Positions 16,434 through 58,061 are shown, numbered from the stretch's first letter. The stretch: DNA of 64,000 bases from Candidatus Wildermuthbacteria bacterium (GCA_037445205.1 JBBIKX010000001.1:8767-72766); one strand, 5' to 3'. A program made the numbers and translations. The notes: generated by a model not told the origin, from the letters alone.

Positions 16434-16461
16434 GAATCCCAAAAAAGATAAGGAGGTAGTG

Positions 16462-40483: not shown

Positions 40484-40505
40484 CGATACAAATTTCTTAC
40501 CTTAA

Positions 40506-40531
40506 AGCCGCGCTCCAGCGTGGCTTTTTTT
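40506..40531 (+). terminator. Rho-independent terminator (agccgcgc-tcca-gcgtggct-ttttttt); likely the original tRNA-operon terminator
   Basis: An 8-bp stem (one G:U pair), tetraloop and a 7-T run. Confidence 0.75.
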
Positions 40532-40589
40532 GGTTGAAATTTTTTTTGATTCTGATAGATTGAAAAAATAACCAAAAGGAGGTGAGACA

Positions 40590-41588
40590 GTGTCTTGCGA
40601 TACAGCCGTTATCGTGAATGTGCAGGCGGGCGCGGGAATGACTCGCTGGAAGTTGGCGCATCTTATGCGCCAGTTAAACCGCATTCTTTCTGTGCCCAAG
40701 AGTTGTGTCTGGCTGACTCGGGAAACCGGCGAGAGCAGCGCCACATCCCTGGCATCTTTTGCCCAAAGCAGAGGGGCCAAAGCAGTGATTGTCTTTGGCG
40801 GAGACGGCACGGTTCATCAGGCAGTAAACGGCCTGAAACTGCCCGATCCTTCAATCTCTGTTGGCATTGTGCCCTGCGGTACGGCCAACGTGGTTGCTTC
40901 CTGCCTTGGAATGCCAAGAAATGTCAAAGCGGCGCTGGAAGTCATAAGGGCCGGAATGACAAGAAAGATCGATCTGGGAATCCTGGAGGGAGATGGCCTT
41001 CCAAGATACGCGGTTTCCACGCTAAGCGTGGGACTTGACGCGATGATAAACGAACTGGCGCATCGTGTTAAGCCCCTGTTTCGGAAATACCATCTGCCAT
41101 CCATCTTGGGCTACATTCCGCCTCTTCTTAGATACACTCTTAATGAAGTTCCGCTCTACGATGTAGCTGTCAAAAAGGATGGATTGGTTTTTTGCGAAAG
41201 GATATCCTTTCTGGCAGTAACAAACACTCCATGGTATGGAGGCGGATTGGTGGACAGAACTGCCAAGCTTGACGACGGGCTGTTTAACATGATATGCGCC
41301 AGAAAGATCAGGTCCCGCGATCTTCCCTGGTGGATGTTTCAGATGTGGCAGGGAAATCACATCTATTATCCCAAGGTTTTTCTGCCCTGCTCTTCGTTTT
41401 CAGGATTAAGCATAAGTTCTGACTTTCCCTTGCCCGCGCAGATTGACGGACAGATTCTGCCCGCCCGGAAGAACATCGCAATCTCTGTCGTTCCCCGCCT
41501 CCTGCAGGTTTTCGCACCTTTGCCCCAACCAGAAAGAACAAAGCATTCTGGTTGGGGTTGTTTTTTTGATATGTCCAGGTTCAGATAG
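40590..41588 (+). CDS. Diacylglycerol-kinase catalytic-domain lipid kinase (YegS/BmrU-like), in GC-rich island B
   Basis: 332 aa with GTG start and SD AGGAGGTG 5 nt upstream. Motifs VIVFGGDGTVHQAVNGL (the GGDGT signature) and IVPCGTANVVA. GC is much higher than the flanks. Confidence 0.75.
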   Translation: MSCDTAVIVNVQAGAGMTRWKLAHLMRQLNRILSVPKSCVWLTRETGESSATSLASFAQSRGAKAVIVFGGDGTVHQAVNGLKLPDPSISVGIVPCGTANVVASCLGMPRNVKAALEVIRAGMTRKIDLGILEGDGLPRYAVSTLSVGLDAMINELAHRVKPLFRKYHLPSILGYIPPLLRYTLNEVPLYDVAVKKDGLVFCERISFLAVTNTPWYGGGLVDRTAKLDDGLFNMICARKIRSRDLPWWMFQMWQGNHIYYPKVFLPCSSFSGLSISSDFPLPAQIDGQILPARKNIAISVVPRLLQVFAPLPQPERTKHSGWGCFFDMSRFR

Positions 41589-41591
41589 ATA

Positions 41592-41620
41592 TTGACCAAA
41601 ATATTCTTTTATGATATAAT
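41592..41620 (+). promoter_or_regulatory. Consensus sigma70 promoter TTGACC-17-TATAAT inside island B
   Basis: TTGACC at 41592-41597 and TATAAT at 41615-41620. It is followed by ttggatatccTAAGGAGGTG. Confidence 0.65.
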
Positions 41621-41647
41621 TTGGATATCCTAAGGAGGTGATGCGTG

Positions 41648-41815
41648 ATGAAGGCGGGTATAGTGATTTTCCGGCATACACAAGTAGAAACGCTGCAGGC
41701 GACGGTTAACGCGTTTCTCAAGGTTCACGCTCCACATATGGAGAACCTTGAGCATCAGCTGGTAGTGACTCCAGACGGCACTATCGTCTTGACCCTGCTT
41801 TATCGGGCTAAGTAG
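41648..41815 (+). CDS. Small hypothetical protein (55 aa), island B
   Basis: SD TAAGGAGGTG at 41631-41640, ATG 7 nt later. Translation MKAGIVIFRHTQVETLQATVNAFLKVHAPHMENLEHQLVVTPDGTIVLTLLYRAK*. Not in the ORF track (under 60 aa). Confidence 0.5.
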   Translation: MKAGIVIFRHTQVETLQATVNAFLKVHAPHMENLEHQLVVTPDGTIVLTLLYRAK

Positions 41816-41837
41816 GGTTCGTAAGGAGGGAGGAACG

Positions 41838-42101
41838 ATGCGTAAGCTCTTTGCGGCGATTGTCGGACTCTACCGTCGGCTCTGGATGATTGAGCCCCGC
41901 CGTTTCAAACGGGGACAAATCATCCAGTTCGAAGACTGGCGCGATGGCATTAGAGTTGCCAAAGCCAGATACCTGGTTCTCGGCAATACACCCTCCGAGA
42001 AGAGGTACGTCCTGGAGGGTGTTGGGCCCGGCAACAAGGGGAGGCGCGAGCGCCTTCGCTTCCGCTGGGTTGACAAACACGCACATTTGGTGCGCGGCTG
42101 A
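41838..42101 (+). CDS. Small basic hypothetical protein (87 aa), island B
   Basis: SD AAGGAGGG at 41823-41830, then the ATG. A strong terminator follows. Confidence 0.55.
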   Translation: MRKLFAAIVGLYRRLWMIEPRRFKRGQIIQFEDWRDGIRVAKARYLVLGNTPSEKRYVLEGVGPGNKGRRERLRFRWVDKHAHLVRG

Positions 42102-42111
42102 AATGCCTGTT

Positions 42112-42155
42112 CCGCCCGGGACTAAGGAGGAGTTCCGGGCGGTTGTTGTTTTTTG
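42112..42155 (+). terminator. Rho-independent terminator (ccgcccgg...ccgggcgg, ttgttgttttttg)
   Basis: An 8-bp perfect GC stem with a T-rich tail. The loop contains taaggagg. Confidence 0.7.
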
Positions 42156-42204
42156 ATGAAGTTTCTGGTATCGTATCAAGTATCGCACATTGGGAGGTGG
42201 AACG

Positions 42205-42348
42205 GTGCACAAATGGGTAATCTTTGCGGTAGTGGTGATCCCAAGCATTCTCATCGGTTCCCTTATCTGCCTTTTCCAAGGAAAGGGCAGAAGAGTGTGG
42301 TCCTTCGCTAAGGGGAGAGTCTTTGCTTGGGCGGAAACGGATTGGTGA
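42205..42348 (+). CDS. Tiny single-TM protein (47 aa, GTG start), island B
   Basis: SD GGGAGGTGG at 42192-42200, 6 nt before the GTG. Translation VHKWVIFAVVVIPSILIGSLICLFQGKGRRVWSFAKGRVFAWAETDW*. Confidence 0.45.
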   Translation: MHKWVIFAVVVIPSILIGSLICLFQGKGRRVWSFAKGRVFAWAETDW

Positions 42349-42371
42349 ACACAATCCTCTTGGCACTTGTT

Positions 42372-42407
42372 AACCGGCGCATCTTCTGATGGGCCGGTTC
42401 ATCTTTT
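42372..42407 (+). terminator. Hairpin aaccggc...gccggtt with a weak U tail; probable right-end terminator of island B
   Basis: A 7-bp stem with a 14-nt loop, followed by catcttttaacaaaaaa. The sequence turns AT-rich after this point. Confidence 0.4.
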
Positions 42408-52908: not shown

Positions 52909-53540
52909 AAAAAAATCCTTATCTTGGAAAATTCATAGTTTTTGAAGGGCTGGACGGGTCCGGACAAAGCACCCAAGCATCAAAACTGGTGGATTATTTC
53001 AATGAAAAAAACCAGATATTTAAATTTGGGCATACCGGAGCGCATCTTACCAAAGAGCCGACATCCGGAATTATTGGAGGATTAATCAGGGGCCAGCTAT
53101 CTTTTGACTGGAAATCTTCTCAAGAATGCCTCCAGCTTTTATTTGCGGCAGATCGGGCGTACCATCTAGAAAAGGAGATTTTGCCTCTTTTGGAAATGGG
53201 CGTAACGGTGGTTTGCGATCGTTATTTTTTTTCTTCTTGCGCCTTCGGGGCGCTGGAGGCCGATCAGGAATGGCTTTTAAAAATCAATGAAAAGTTTCTT
53301 TTGCCTGATTTGATATTCCTGCTTGCTGTTTCTCCCAAAATCTGCATTGAAAGAATAAAAAGAAATCGTTTTGAAATAAATCTTTTTGAAAACGAAGAAA
53401 TATTAAAAAATGTGTGGGAGAAATACTTGATATTGGCACATCAAAATAAAAACACGCATATTATAGACGGGGAACGGCCGATCAATGAGATTTTTGAGGA
53501 GATTAAAGAAATAACTGATAGGAAATTTAACCAACGATGA
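52905..53540 (+). CDS. tmk: Thymidylate (dTMP) kinase
   Basis: 211 aa with P-loop FEGLDGSGQSTQ and LID region. Confidence 0.9.
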   Translation: MKKNPYLGKFIVFEGLDGSGQSTQASKLVDYFNEKNQIFKFGHTGAHLTKEPTSGIIGGLIRGQLSFDWKSSQECLQLLFAADRAYHLEKEILPLLEMGVTVVCDRYFFSSCAFGALEADQEWLLKINEKFLLPDLIFLLAVSPKICIERIKRNRFEINLFENEEILKNVWEKYLILAHQNKNTHIIDGERPINEIFEEIKEITDRKFNQR

Positions 53541-55024
53541 TAAATTCATCAAAAAAATATATTCCCGTCATCGGGCTTGAAATACATACGGAATTAAAAA
53601 CTAATTCCAAAATGTTTTGCGGGTGCAAAAACGATTCGCAGGAAAAAGAAGCGAATTTGAATATTTGTCCTGTTTGCATGGGTCATCCCGGCACTCTCCC
53701 CGTTATAAACAAAACAGCGATTCGTTTTGTCATAAAAACAGGGATTGCTCTGAATTGTAAAATTACAAAAGAGTCGCGATTTGAAAGAAAAAATTATTTT
53801 TATCCCGATCTTCCAAAAGGATATCAGATTTCTCAATACAAAGAGCCGTTTTGTTTTAATGGCTTTTTAAAAATAAATAATAAAAAAATAAGAATTAGAA
53901 GGGTTCATTTGGAAGAAGATACTGCCCGCCTGATACACTCCAAAAATGGATATTCGCTGATTGATTTCAACCGCGCCGGCATTCCTTTAATGGAGCTTGT
54001 AACGGAGCCGGACATAGAATCTTCTAAAGAGGCATCAGACTTCGCAAAAAAACTTCAGTTGATCCTGAGATATTTAAATGTTTCCAGCGCTGACATGGAA
54101 AAAGGGCAATTGAGAGTGGAGGCAAATATTTCATTAATAAACGCAAATTTTAAAGCAAAAAACGCAAAACTAGGAACAAAGGTGGAGATCAAAAATTTAA
54201 ATTCGTTTAGGGCAGTTGAGAGGGCGATAGAATATGAAATAGAAAGGCAAAAGGAGTTACTATTAAATGATGAGAGGGTGGCGCAGGAAACAAGAGGATG
54301 GGATCCTCAATCAGAAAGAACCTTTCCCCAGAGAGAAAAAGAAGAGGCGCATGATTACCGCTACTTTCCAGAGCCGGATTTGCCCCAGATTTATATAAAA
54401 AAAGACTATCTGGAGGCGATAAAAAAAGGAATTCCCGAACTTCCCGATCAAAAAATAAAAAGATTAAAAGAAGAATTTTTTGTTAACGAACAATCAGCCC
54501 AGATTCTTGTCTCTAACAGAGATTTAAGCGAGTATTTTGAAAAATCGGCAAGCGAGCTTTTAAGATGGTCAAAAGACAAAAGATTAGATCAAAAGAGCCA
54601 AAAAGAATTGATACAGAGCGCCGCCAACTATCTTTTGACAGATTTACTCGGCTGTCTTTCAGGGAAAGAATTTTCAGAAAAAGATTTTCCCATAACGCCT
54701 GAAAATTTCGGAGAGTTTATCGCTCTTGTCCGCGATAAAAAATTCACAAGCAAAATGGCAAAAATTCTTTTAGGAGAGATGTTTGATTCCGGCCAAGATC
54801 CCTCAACCATAATAAAAAAAAGAGGATTAATCCAGACGGACAACGAAGATGAGATTAAAAAAATAGTGCAAAAAATAATTTCATCAAATCCTCGGGCATT
54901 TGAAGATTATAAAAAAGGAAAAGAAAATGCTCTTCAATTCATGATTGGACAAATGATGAAAGAAACTAAAGGCACTATAAATCCCCAGATGGCAAAGAAA
55001 GCGTTGATTGATTTTTTAAAATAA
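53537..55024 (+). CDS. gatB: Glutamyl/aspartyl-tRNA amidotransferase subunit B
   Basis: 495 aa. N-terminal GLEIHTELKT...CGC...CPVC motifs and GatB/YqeY tail. Confidence 0.93.
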   Translation: MINSSKKYIPVIGLEIHTELKTNSKMFCGCKNDSQEKEANLNICPVCMGHPGTLPVINKTAIRFVIKTGIALNCKITKESRFERKNYFYPDLPKGYQISQYKEPFCFNGFLKINNKKIRIRRVHLEEDTARLIHSKNGYSLIDFNRAGIPLMELVTEPDIESSKEASDFAKKLQLILRYLNVSSADMEKGQLRVEANISLINANFKAKNAKLGTKVEIKNLNSFRAVERAIEYEIERQKELLLNDERVAQETRGWDPQSERTFPQREKEEAHDYRYFPEPDLPQIYIKKDYLEAIKKGIPELPDQKIKRLKEEFFVNEQSAQILVSNRDLSEYFEKSASELLRWSKDKRLDQKSQKELIQSAANYLLTDLLGCLSGKEFSEKDFPITPENFGEFIALVRDKKFTSKMAKILLGEMFDSGQDPSTIIKKRGLIQTDNEDEIKKIVQKIISSNPRAFEDYKKGKENALQFMIGQMMKETKGTINPQMAKKALIDFLK

Positions 55025-55135
55025 TATATAATACTTAAAATCCAGAATAAGGAGGTGGTCGCCGGGATACAGTCCAAAGAGGGCGAGGGGCGTTTTCGGA
55101 AGCAAAACCGGATCTTTCTTGCGAAAGGAGCATCG

Positions 55136-55333
55136 ATGCCAGCAGTAAATCTTGTTAACGTGGCGAGGTCATTGCCGGACGAAGAGGCGGAGAGGCTTTT
55201 GCTCATCGAGCAAAGCAATCCTGATTGCCTCAGGGCGCTTTTTGCGGTCGTTCTGAGCGCCGGAACGCTGGAAAAAGCTGTTCCTCTGATCCAACGAGTT
55301 CTTGCTGGCGCACCCTTGTTTCCGGGCGGATGA
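55136..55333 (+). CDS. Small hypothetical protein (65 aa) in GC-rich cassette C; start uncertain
   Basis: Inside a GC-rich segment that begins with AAGGAGGTG (55049-55057) but has no start codon at the right spacing. An internal aaaggag-N5-ATG sits at 55136. The ORF ends at a TGA followed by a perfect terminator. Confidence 0.4.
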   Translation: MPAVNLVNVARSLPDEEAERLLLIEQSNPDCLRALFAVVLSAGTLEKAVPLIQRVLAGAPLFPGG

Positions 55334-56341
55334 AACTGGATGGGGCTCCCTTCGGGAGCCCCCTTGTTTTGTTAAAAAAGTATTTATTATTTTTCTGGCT
55401 TTTTTTTTATCCCCAACCCAATTTACTCTTTTGTCTTTTTTAAACCAGGTTATTTGTCTTTTGGCGTAACTTTCAATTGCTTTTTGGAGCATTCCGACCA
55501 TTTCATCATAGCCAATTTTTTTTTGAAGATAGCAAGCAATATATCTGTATTCCAATCCAAATTCTTCAAGCCGTTTCCAGGAAACGCCGTCTTTTCTTAG
55601 CGCTCTGACCTCTTTTATCATCCCCTGATTTAATCTTTTGTATAGCCGTTTTCTGATTAAATTTTTTAGCTCTTTTTTTTCTTTCTTGATGCCGATAATG
55701 AGCAAATCAAACAATTGGCTTTTTTTTATGACGGGTACCGGTTTTTTTGATTTCAAAACTATTTCAATTGCCCGGATTAATCTGCGGGGATTTTTTTTAT
55801 CAATAATTTTTGCCCGCCGCGGGTCCAGTTTTTTTAACATTTGATAAAGCTGGTTTGGCAATTTTTTTTCCAGTTTTTTCCTTAATTTCCAGTCCGGCGG
55901 AATTTTTGGGATGACGATTCCGTCAACGACTGATTGAATATAGAATCCGGTGCCGCCGCAAAGAATGGGCAGCTTATTTCTCTTATGGATTTCCCTTATT
56001 TTTTTTAATGCCATTTTTTGATACTGGGCGACCGTAAATTTCCTTTTTGGAGAAGCAACATCCAAAAGATGATGTTGGATGCCTCTATAAAGATATGACT
56101 GTTTTGAAATTTGAGATTTAGGACTTGGAGTTTGTTTAGAAATTAGAAATTTGGAATTAGAAATTTTATCTCGTGGAACCTTCCCGGTTCCGATATCCAT
56201 TTTGCGATAAACCTGACGGGAATCGGCCGAAATCACCTCTCCGTTAAAATTTTTTGCCAGTGCTACCGCCAAATCGCTTTTTCCCGAAGCAGTGGGTCCA
56301 AGAATAACTAACAATATTTTTCGGTCCGTTTTTTTTGACAT
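55169..56341 (-). CDS. miaA: tRNA dimethylallyltransferase; about the last 70 codons read antisense through GC-rich cassette C (an insert-derived C-terminal extension or lost stop)
   Basis: P-loop ILGPTASGKS and MiaA core. The lysine-rich host-like tail ...NWVGDKKKARKIINTFLTKQ is followed by the GC-rich-encoded GGSRREPHPVSS... Confidence 0.8.
   Translation of the reverse strand: MSKKTDRKILLVILGPTASGKSDLAVALAKNFNGEVISADSRQVYRKMDIGTGKVPRDKISNSKFLISKQTPSPKSQISKQSYLYRGIQHHLLDVASPKRKFTVAQYQKMALKKIREIHKRNKLPILCGGTGFYIQSVVDGIVIPKIPPDWKLRKKLEKKLPNQLYQMLKKLDPRRAKIIDKKNPRRLIRAIEIVLKSKKPVPVIKKSQLFDLLIIGIKKEKKELKNLIRKRLYKRLNQGMIKEVRALRKDGVSWKRLEEFGLEYRYIACYLQKKIGYDEMVGMLQKAIESYAKRQITWFKKDKRVNWVGDKKKARKIINTFLTKQGGSRREPHPVSSARKQGCASKNSLDQRNSFFQRSGAQNDRKKRPEAIRIALLDEQKPLRLFVRQ
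55342..55374 (+). terminator. Rho-independent terminator with UUCG tetraloop (ggggctccc-ttcg-gggagcccc-cttgttttgtt)
   Basis: A 9-bp perfect stem with a T-rich tail. It lies antisense inside the extended miaA reading frame. Confidence 0.75.
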
Positions 56342-56363
56342 AATCCCAAGAATATTATATCAT
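56335..56363 (+). promoter_or_regulatory. Consensus sigma70 promoter TTGACA-17-TATCAT of cassette D
   Basis: The -35 box at 56335-56340 overlaps the miaA ATG on the opposite strand. The -10 box is at 56358-56363, followed by tataaatcccaaaaAGGAGGTGgttaATG. Confidence 0.6.
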
Positions 56364-56389
56364 TATAAATCCCAAAAAGGAGGTGGTTA

Positions 56390-56683
56390 ATGTCGTATTA
56401 TTTAGCAATAATGTTTATGTTGCTAAGCGCAGGCTTTGCAAGTGCGGGGTTTAGGGTGATCCGTTATGCCCTTCGAGGAAAGCTGACAGGCACTATGCTT
56501 GATAGAGGCATGATACTCGGTACTGTCATCGTGCTTGTTGGAGTGGGGCTCGCCACGATTCCCATCATCTTCCAGAGCGGGATAAGATGGTGGTGTCTTG
56601 CGCTGGCGCTTGTGGAGGCAGTGGTCTGTATTGGGCTCTGGATGCTGCATGTCTTCTCGTCTGCGTCAATGGATTCACCCTAA
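56390..56683 (+). CDS. Small integral membrane protein, about 3 TM (GC-rich cassette D)
   Basis: 97 aa. A perfect SD AAGGAGGTG sits 4 nt before the ATG. Hydrophobic and GC-rich. Confidence 0.6.
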   Translation: MSYYLAIMFMLLSAGFASAGFRVIRYALRGKLTGTMLDRGMILGTVIVLVGVGLATIPIIFQSGIRWWCLALALVEAVVCIGLWMLHVFSSASMDSP

Positions 56684-56695
56684 GGCGTGGATTGC

Positions 56696-56728
56696 GAGGG
56701 CTCTCTTGTGCGGGGGCCCTCCTTTTTT
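56696..56728 (+). terminator. GC-rich hairpin plus T6 terminator of cassette D
   Basis: gagggc...gccctc stem followed by cttttttt. The T run abuts the miaB stop codon on the other strand. Confidence 0.6.
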
Positions 56729-58061
56729 ATTCCATCAATTTTCCTCTCAGTCCGTATGGACCAATGTTTATTATTTTGGCTTTAACAAAATTTCCTAAAA
56801 TATTTTTATCTGATTTCAATCTAATGGTTTGATAATGCCTTGTTTTTCCGACATAAAAATCATTTTTTTTGGTGAGTATCAAAACTTCCGCGGTTTTTTT
56901 AAAAAACTTCTTGTTAAAATTTAAAATGGTTTTTTTTAATACTTTGAATAATTCTTTTTCTCTTGTTTTTTTCTTAAAGTTGGGGACATCGTCGTTTAAA
57001 TGAAGGGCGGCTGTTTGAGGCCTTTTAGAATAAGCCGCAATATATCCAAACGCAAATCCGATTTTTTCAAAATTATTTTTTGTATTTTCAAATTGTTTTT
57101 TGGTCTCGCCGGGAAATCCTACAATTACATCAGAAGATACAGCCACTTCTTTTTCGATGCCGCATCTGTATTTTTTAAAATTATTTCTTATTTTTTTAAT
57201 AAGCGCTTTATATTGAGATACAGTGTAGGGCCTATTCATTTTTTTAAGGATTTCATTGTCTCCTGATTGAATTGGAAGATTAATATAGGGCGTTACTTTA
57301 TGGCATTTTGCCATTGTTTTAATTAGTTCGTCGCTTAAATCTTTTGGATGAGAAGAGGTAAATCTTATCCAAAAATTCCCCTCAATATCATTTATCATTT
57401 TAAGAAGCGTTGGAAAATTTATTTCTTTTTCTTTTTTCACTTTAAGGTTTGTGTTTTGGATTTTACCATTATAGGAATTGACATTCTGTCCCAACAGCCA
57501 TACTTCTTTTGCTCCGCTTAAAACGGCCTTTTTTATTTCACAAATAATATCTTGGGCCGGCCTTGAGATTTCTTTTCCTCTTACATAAGGTACGACGCAA
57601 TAACTGCAGAAATTATTGCACCCGGTCATTATCGGAATATAGGCAACAACAGGGGATTGATATTTAGGCATTAATTCAAAATAGTGTTTTTTTTTGAATT
57701 CAACCGACCTAATTTTAAAACCAAGCTTTTTTAATATCTCGGGCAATTTGGGAAGCTCATTTATGTCAAAGATTTCATCGCAGAATTTATTAAGTTCTTT
57801 TTTGTCTTTTTCTAAGATACATCCCGTTAAAATAATTTTATATTTTATATTTTTATTTTCATATTTGAGCCTTATCTTTTTAATTCGAGCGCTTGCTCGA
57901 TCTATCGCCGACTGTCTGACTGAACAGATATTAAACACTATCAAATCCACCCCATCGCATTTATTGGCATGATTAAATCCTGATTTTTCCAAAACGCCTG
58001 CGATTCTTTCGGAGTCAGATTTATTCATTTGGCACCCAAAAGTGATAATATGATATTTCAT
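56727..58061 (-). CDS. miaB: tRNA-i6A37 methylthiotransferase (radical SAM MTTase)
   Basis: 444 aa with an N-terminal MTTase domain (ITFGCQMN), radical-SAM CNNFCSYC and a TRAM domain. Adjacent to miaA. Confidence 0.88.
   Translation of the reverse strand: MKYHIITFGCQMNKSDSERIAGVLEKSGFNHANKCDGVDLIVFNICSVRQSAIDRASARIKKIRLKYENKNIKYKIILTGCILEKDKKELNKFCDEIFDINELPKLPEILKKLGFKIRSVEFKKKHYFELMPKYQSPVVAYIPIMTGCNNFCSYCVVPYVRGKEISRPAQDIICEIKKAVLSGAKEVWLLGQNVNSYNGKIQNTNLKVKKEKEINFPTLLKMINDIEGNFWIRFTSSHPKDLSDELIKTMAKCHKVTPYINLPIQSGDNEILKKMNRPYTVSQYKALIKKIRNNFKKYRCGIEKEVAVSSDVIVGFPGETKKQFENTKNNFEKIGFAFGYIAAYSKRPQTAALHLNDDVPNFKKKTREKELFKVLKKTILNFNKKFFKKTAEVLILTKKNDFYVGKTRHYQTIRLKSDKNILGNFVKAKIINIGPYGLRGKLME

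Follow-up and report, generated by a model that had tools for sequence, protein, structure and literature searches.

The 3' end of miaA raises a question in the stretch of DNA analysed here (64,000 nucleotides of a Candidatus Wildermuthbacteria bacterium, hereafter the window): why does the reading frame of this housekeeping enzyme lack a stop codon at its end, and what is the GC-rich DNA into which it continues? The initial annotation proposed that a GC-rich cassette, either damaged or in an antisense arrangement affecting miaA, was inserted at this position. We arrived at a different account, in which a strain-variable slot carries an intact small gene, the miaA stop was lost, and an unselected tail is encoded antisense to the small gene; the probability of this account as a whole is about 0.7. 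The real anomaly of the locus is the absent stop, not the long open antisense frame.

The miaA reading frame and the absent stop

The miaA ORF occupies 55169..56341 on the minus strand and encodes 390 amino acids. Its first 325 codons, miaA proper (55367..56341), contain the complete IPPT domain. The window MiaA matched Pfam PF01715 (IPPT) with an E-value of 1.1e-63 and 215.6 bits (cutoff 23.6), profile positions 1-243 of 243 being covered by residues 43-303, and the N-terminal P-loop GPTASGKS (GxxxxGK[ST]) was invariant across a 30-sequence MiaA alignment. The closest MiaA matches were labelled, for example, Candidatus Pacebacteria and Minisyncoccales. At residues of about 60-80 (56103-56165), a low-complexity insert, ISNSKFLISKQTPSPKSQISKQ, is encoded by short degenerate direct repeats; its length differed between relatives, and it was modelled at pLDDT below 50.

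The AT-rich 3' end of the gene codes for ...KKARKIINTFLTKQ, where the final Q is a CAA codon at 55364..55366, the position of the TAA stop in the related locus L005 in identical context. Beyond FLTKQ the frame remains open for 64 codons (55172-55363) and is closed by TGA at 55169-55171, the read-through tail with its stop spanning 55169..55363. It crosses the hairpin GGGGCTCCC-TTC-GGGAGCCCC (55342-55362) and then runs antisense to an ORF on the plus strand. The ORF reading of the sequence therefore agreed with the initial annotation that no stop follows FLTKQ and that the frame runs via a terminator hairpin and an opposite-strand ORF to the TGA at 55169. Its fusion of about 70 GC-rich codons onto MiaA was right as to the fusion and the GC richness, and the counted number was 64. 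GC content was 56% in the tail codons vs 36% in the miaA core. The encoded tail is strongly basic (pI 11.4) and rich in Arg, Ser and Gln, with peptides such as EPHPVSSAR, NSFFQR and IALLDEQKPLR. A database-style call of a 390-aa 'MiaA' masks the small gene on the opposite strand, and the fused tail should not be counted as a MiaA domain.

The related loci L001 and L002/L003 were recovered via MiaA homologues, while L008 (Logan assembly, run SRR11582151) was retrieved using the exact 390-aa MiaA as the query. In principle a sequencing or assembly artefact could explain the missing stop: a genuine one might have dropped out of the assembly, or the ending ...INTF* might have been lost through an error of 1 nt in the A6/T6 run (55374-55379), since the source is a metagenome-derived assembly and a TAA lies out of frame within the T6 run, where loss of one T would give a stop. 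The sequencing error near 55376 that the initial annotation had considered was not found, as the independent assembly L008 is also stop-less there and is identical across the miaA junction. L008 encodes exactly the same 390-aa protein, and its 10,275-bp alignment with the window shows 99.99% identity, the sole mismatch lying at 56975, far from the junction. In addition, the frame through FLTK is the usual C-terminal frame of the family (DFLTK*, FLQKK* and FLKNL* in relatives), which indicates that it is correct up to the hairpin and makes a frameshift error upstream of the hairpin unlikely, and a separate organism, L001, independently has a stop-less junction. The probability left to an artefact is close to negligible. 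A search for contigs encoding P0001 returned none. TGA closes 12 of the 44 long ORFs in the window, and an alternative genetic code was rejected since TGA is thus an ordinary stop here.

At 55370-55378 on the minus strand, the conserved Phe-Leu codons read U UUU UUA, 9 nt upstream of the GC hairpin, an arrangement that is formally like a -1 frameshift signal and is the same in L001; the +1 frame has a TAA there. A programmed -1 frameshift site would call for an in-frame slippery heptamer, a spacer of 5-9 nt and a stable downstream hairpin leading to a defined alternative product. Shifting by -1 here would yield another stop-less tail of ~47 codons and no sensible product; the heptamer can be accounted for by the conserved Phe-Leu codons, and the hairpin by a terminator role.

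A variable slot between gatB and miaA

The block is flanked by gatB, tmk, miaA and miaB in conserved synteny. On its left side lies gatB (53537..55024, plus strand, 495 aa), identified by GatB_N/GatB_Yqey Pfam matches on the syntenic genes. In L009 (Logan SRR21427515), whose MiaA is 77% identical to that of L001, the block is absent and the gatB and miaA stops are 16 nt apart; this empty junction supported the view that GC-rich accessory DNA has been placed at the miaA 3' end in the window, as the initial annotation had suggested. The miaA tail of L009 (KKIINTFLKNL*) is identical to the window in DNA up to the junction, and the comparison located the right-hand block junction within the last 2-3 codons of miaA, stop included.

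Filled versions of the slot were found at different distances from the window. The L001 locus (Logan SRR8371833), with a MiaA 65% identical to that of the window, carries a collinear homologous block. This block shares AATCCAGAATAAGGAGGTGGT with the window, and its leader falls in the same length class; GCATCGATG stands at the start, the ORF has 65 codons, and its stop is followed by the shared TGAAACTGGATGG and by a GC hairpin. The equivalent of the second Shine-Dalgarno (SD) sequence in L001 is AAGGGGG, and the two cassettes are roughly 30% diverged. L002/L003 (GCA_964383555.1, SRR11582140), with a MiaA 93% identical, has a 61-codon ORF at the same place, which keeps GGGAGGTGGT and a similar N-terminus and is otherwise 27% identical. 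The slot is occupied by unrelated ORFs of 190 and 70 aa in L005 and by a 93-aa ORF in L007, all of which share their strand with gatB and have AAGGAGG-type SDs; a terminal hairpin adjoins the miaA stop. Elsewhere in L005 (2208-2906), the miaB-miaA gap contains an opposite-strand 232-aa ORF with a faint match to Y1_Tnp (IS200-like transposase).

Comparison with the closest relative, L002, delimited a tract of ~550 bp (approximately 54874..55424 by sliding identity, blastn breakpoints 55088/55359), on both flanks of which the identity was 95-100%. Within the tract, identity fell to 70-82% in the final ~150 nt of gatB (from about 54874) and to 30-60% over the block and the last ~17 codons of miaA. 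The drop between such similar flanks suggests an allele replacement by recombination. The window miaA tail (IINTFL) is also like L001 and L009 and unlike L002 (LAKDFL). Taken together, the sequence comparisons mark the gatB-miaA junction as a small hotspot at which apparently self-contained, GC-rich orphan genes with strong SDs are inserted, replaced or absent in the AT-rich genomes of close relatives. The slot is possibly worth study as a route of gene gain in reduced genomes, and the exchangeable slot and its orphan small gene are the parts of this locus that deserve most further work. The runs of L003 (SRR11582140) and L008 (SRR11582151) bear neighbouring accession numbers and hold very different slot alleles, with and without the miaA stop respectively; both strains may therefore be present together in one study system.

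The GC-rich small gene opposite the tail

The block contains 57% GC vs about 37% in its surroundings. A sigma-70-like promoter was predicted at 55004..55032 on the plus strand (TTGATT, 17 nt, TATAAT; 10/12 matches in a consensus scan). It straddles the gatB stop, its -35 lying within the final gatB codons, and in the alignment TATAAT is kept in L001 and L002 as in the window. At the 5' end of the leader (55040..55135, roughly 85-95 nt), AAGGAGGTG (55049..55057, plus) is placed some 10-15 nt downstream of the predicted TSS and about 79-85 nt before the ATG at 55136, without ATG, GTG or TTG at usable spacing, and is conserved as (A/G)GGAGGTGGT in L001 and L002. The leader is not unusually structured (fold z-score +0.46, no better than shuffles). 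A second SD, AAAGGAG (55124..55130), was read from the sequence 5 nt before the ATG. It is followed by the small ORF of 65 codons plus TGA (55136..55333), predicted to encode an orphan helical protein, and by an intrinsic terminator (55342..55372, plus) made of a 9-bp GC stem (55342-55362) and a T-tract. This T-tract is the complement of the last Lys/Thr codons of miaA and of the former stop position. Judged by their match to consensus, the promoter and the terminator presumably work.

AAGGAGGTG is non-random in the window, with 4 copies in 64 kb (at 40576, 41632, 55049 and 56377) vs 0.31 expected, each where a GC-richer block begins. An SD of this kind is missing from core genes such as miaA. 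Further GC-richer ORFs with strong SDs start at 16451 (plus, 125 aa) and 62871 (minus, 291 aa). An island of roughly 1.9 kb at 40490-42400 (47-55% GC vs about 37%) contains a DAGK_cat/YegS_C-type kinase gene (40590-41588) and three small ORFs, each ORF with an AAGGAGG-type SD and a hairpin and with promoter-like AT-rich spacers between them. Between miaA and miaB there is a further GC-rich unit, cassette D (56348-56722). Its promoter/SD region (56348-56387) shares 70% identity with the equivalent 40 nt of the studied block (55020-55059), its ATG stands 5 nt after AAGGAGGTGGT, and its 97-aa hydrophobic, membrane-protein-like ORF (56390-56683) is followed by a terminator (56696-56721). Cassette D is present in L002 at about 95% identity and missing in L001 and L007, whose miaB and miaA genes adjoin or overlap each other.

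The initial annotation correctly noted that AAGGAGGTG has no properly spaced start and that the first ATG, at 55136, follows AAAGGAG. The damaged cassette that it considered on this ground was not supported. Such damage would mean that a start codon once stood just after AAGGAGGTG and is now lost, the block being a decaying pseudogene, and the same promoter/SD module in cassette D, where an ATG does follow 5 nt later, speaks for this. On the other hand, three diverged alleles have in common the start-less AAGGAGGTGGT, a long leader and a second SD placed before the start codon, features kept in L001 and more loosely in L002, and an intact ORF of 61-65 codons is present in all three. An N-terminal extension of the small ORF from a GTG at 55055 was ruled out by the broken frame in L001: there, the frame opened by the GTG within the first SD runs in another phase than the main ORF and closes separately, which makes the stretch 5' of the ATG at 55136 a leader. 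Decay of the gene is thus very improbable. Since leader, promoter (TATAAT) and ORF are kept across the three loci, the block is, as far as sequence conservation indicates, an intact and undamaged promoter-leader-ORF-terminator unit.

There is moderate evidence from sequence comparison that the small ORF is protein-coding. Between the window and L001, the product showed 55% amino acid identity with zero indels over 65 codons. The pN/pS ratio was 0.54 vs a column-shuffle median of 0.80 (P = 0.044, from two comparable sequences only), and the window-L001 differences by codon position were 16/18/25 (third-position excess P = 0.09). The AlphaFold model of the small protein consisted of 4 short helices at pLDDT 69, and the protein sequence includes SLPDEEAER and ALFAVVLSAGTLEK.

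Homologues were sought in several collections. The small protein gave zero matches in Pfam, PHROGs and NCBIfam, zero in a Foldseek search against the PDB and zero in BLAST against phage and plasmid sequences; a word-indexed search with a 3-allele profile recovered only the L002 protein, and the window-type small ORF was absent from the gene calls of a 5.8-billion-cluster collection. No further cassette loci were found in a viral scan. A first metagenome scan gave 600 candidates, 0 of which were confirmed, and a second gave 31 matches, nearly all on GC-rich contigs and none with GatB, MiaA or the small protein. The genome-contig scan gave a single match, which fell within an ORF of 1095 aa in a MAG from Bacteroidota (Flammeovirgaceae) and was judged spurious; we take this ORF to encode a TonB-dependent outer-membrane receptor. 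Membership of the TPR families (TPR_10/TPR_12) was also rejected, since the matches of an exhaustive phmmer search were summed weak repeat scores to multi-repeat proteins, the pairwise E-value was 0.036, and Pfam gave no match even at E <= 10.

We also considered that the block might be non-coding, a structured or antisense RNA of ~320 nt convergent with miaA in which the 65-codon ORF is incidental. Structured RNAs in AT-rich genomes are typically of high GC, the whole-block fold z-score was -2.5, the ORF homologues in the searched collections were limited to the L001 and L002 alleles, and the coding statistics are marginal. Against these points stand the conserved start and stop positions and the lack of indels between the window and L001, the retention of a 61-codon ORF in the very divergent L002 allele, and an SD at proper spacing before the ORF. 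At the gathering threshold, the Rfam matches in the window were limited to three tRNAs at other positions, with none for the leader or the block, which also speaks against an RNA. Covariation from 3 sequences is not interpretable and was used neither for nor against it. We consider the RNA reading unlikely, and a small protein-coding gene is preferred.

The MiaA tail, its origin and its parallels

The length of the tail follows from the composition of the small gene. Codon-complementary antisense stops arise solely from the sense codons TTA, CTA and TCA. The miaA frame enters the small gene in exactly codon-complementary register, and its TGA lies opposite TCA, the Ser12 codon of that gene. 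Small-gene codons 13-65 would be free of TTA, CTA and TCA with a probability of about 0.29 under the codon usage of the window's GC-rich blocks and of 0.005 under host codon usage. Since a GC-rich gene avoids these codons and the register is codon-complementary, the antisense frame stays open, and it is a by-product of GC-rich codon usage. The locus is a natural case of such usage rendering an antisense strand translatable.

Extensions of this kind are not natural in MiaA orthologues. Among the 30 aligned MiaA proteins, 28 extend no further than about 25 residues past the FL motif, with C-termini such as DFLTK*, DFLQKK*, TFLKNL* and KKFL*, and only the window protein and P0003 (from L001) carry the tail; P0002, whose sequence is 93% identical to the window MiaA, ends ...FLQKK. 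Likewise, among the 120 listed MiaA matches P0003 alone has a tail in common with the window, the other long proteins being one of 350 aa, whose extension is unrelated, and two MiaA fusions with a radical-SAM (MiaB-type) domain. P0065 and P0066, encoded by some relatives, are proteins of 654-667 aa that combine MiaB-type radical-SAM domains (PF00919, PF04055) with the MiaA IPPT domain. A search with the tail peptide returned zero matches, but it was uninformative because it missed P0001 and P0003 themselves. In the AlphaFold model, residues 1-326 of MiaA were confident, while residues 328-390 had pLDDT below 50. Over the tail overlap, the window and L001 showed 38% identity and a pN/pS of 1.2 in the miaA frame, vs 55% and 0.54 in the sense frame. 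The pN/pS value, the low identity and the predicted disorder argue against the tail as a selected part of MiaA, and on these comparisons and models the best reading is that it would be a tolerated, unselected extension.

The window and L001 are both stop-less in the same register, and as a counterpoint the fusion could be old and maintained rather than accidental. The basic tail might then serve MiaA, for example in tRNA binding, or couple the expression of miaA and the small gene, the overlap coding on two strands. The shared state occurs in two lineages whose MiaA proteins are only 65% identical, all alignment gaps from the FL codon to the small-gene stop are multiples of three, and the strongly basic pI of 11.4 would suit such a role. 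However, the substitution pattern and the disorder already described oppose it, the closest relative has no tail, the open frame is expected from codon usage, and the shared register is explained by a 1-in-3 chance or by shared ancestry. A functional, maintained fusion is therefore quite unlikely. A stronger form, in which the stop-less junction is old and maintained and MiaA is deliberately translated over the terminator and the antisense strand to couple the two convergent genes, is decidedly improbable. If coupling were true, ribosome traffic or RNA duplex formation would let the convergent genes control each other, and the locus would count as a true overlap with coding on both strands, in a CPR-type genome of reduced size, at a slot of strain-exchanged divergent alleles. 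The preferred reading remains that the stop-loss tail on MiaA is a genuine yet fairly ordinary evolutionary accident.

Comparing alleles leaves two ways in which the stop may have been lost. L005 reads ttt tta aca aaa TAA aggggc and the window ttt tta aca aaa CAA gggggc; CAA and TAA differ here by one base, G55366 on the plus strand, which is A in L005. The L002 tail, caa aaa aag TAA, places the stop directly against its hairpin, while in L001 ttt tta aaa aaa is followed by the hairpin and a stop is absent. The TAG of the L009 empty site, which lies within the 16 nt, is missing from the cassette-bearing alleles. Single substitutions may have changed a TAA beside the hairpin, to CAA in the window and to AAA in L001; it is also possible that a cassette allele displaced the original stop without supplying a new one, and that this state then became common to the window and L001. 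The site offers a clean natural case in which one base decides whether a housekeeping enzyme gains a 64-residue random tail.

The proposed course of events is as follows. The strain-variable slot between the convergent gatB and miaA would here hold an intact, self-contained small gene, and the miaA stop would have gone by the single T-to-C change or by displacement without replacement. The hairpin at 55342-55362 has a T-tract on the plus strand only, and the U-tract signature of a terminator is absent from the minus strand; thus the hairpin should terminate the small gene and not miaA, and miaA transcripts probably run into the antisense strand of the small gene in all these genomes. In the window, transcription presumably extends beyond the hairpin, and the tail is presumably made. 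As miaA has no stop at the junction, ribosomes on its mRNA would read on across the hairpin and then the strand antisense to the small gene, and translation would end at the complement of the first TCA of that gene (TGA 55169). The product would be MiaA with a 64-residue Arg/Ser/Gln-rich disordered tail, tolerated and not selected. If miaA transcripts instead end at or near the hairpin, a non-stop mRNA would result in place of a tailed protein.

Neither stop-loss extensions nor antisense frames that stay open in GC-rich DNA are new phenomena. In GC-rich DNA, antisense 'shadow' ORFs are normally untranslated annotation artefacts. The tail is like them in being exactly complementary in register and in ending at the complement of the first TCA, and unlike them in being fused in frame to a real gene. 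The recent de novo C-termini studied in PMC4494051 are an example of C-terminal extensions by stop-codon loss. As in stop-loss (non-stop) extensions, a conserved enzyme here gains a tail from its 3' flank up to the next in-frame stop, and the window tail appears unconstrained and is predicted to be disordered. Here, however, the recruited DNA is the antisense of an apparently functional gene together with its terminator hairpin, and the state is seen in two diverged lineages.

The block itself resembles other mobile or accessory units to different degrees. Phage morons are promoter-gene-terminator units of deviant GC inserted between two genes. By consensus matches and by comparison of filled with empty sites, the block likewise combines promoter, SD, ORF, terminator and deviant GC, and it shows presence, absence and replacement between otherwise collinear genomes; unlike a moron, it lies between core housekeeping genes of a bacterial chromosome, outside a prophage, and no phage similarity was found in the phage records searched. 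The block also appears to differ from an integron cassette. An attC site (an imperfect palindrome of 57-141 nt with RYYYAAC/GTTRRRY cores) was not visible by reading of the sequence, and the 3' element is a simple 21-nt GC hairpin with a T-tract and without integron core-site motifs. Integron cassette ORFs are promoterless and expressed from Pc, with intI nearby, and the sigma-70-like promoter match of the block itself argues against membership of this class.

Finally, the start-less SD has a parallel in STAB-SD, a 5' mRNA stabiliser known from Bacillus thuringiensis cry3A (PMC4113751). Like STAB-SD, AAGGAGGTGGT lies near the predicted 5' end, is start-less, stands far upstream of the real start and is conserved in the alleles. 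The likeness would be one of sequence features, 30S binding, the resulting block to the 5'-3' exonuclease RNase J and a longer mRNA half-life being properties of STAB-SD, and it would extend from a Firmicute, the host of STAB-SD, to the CPR-type bacterium of the window.
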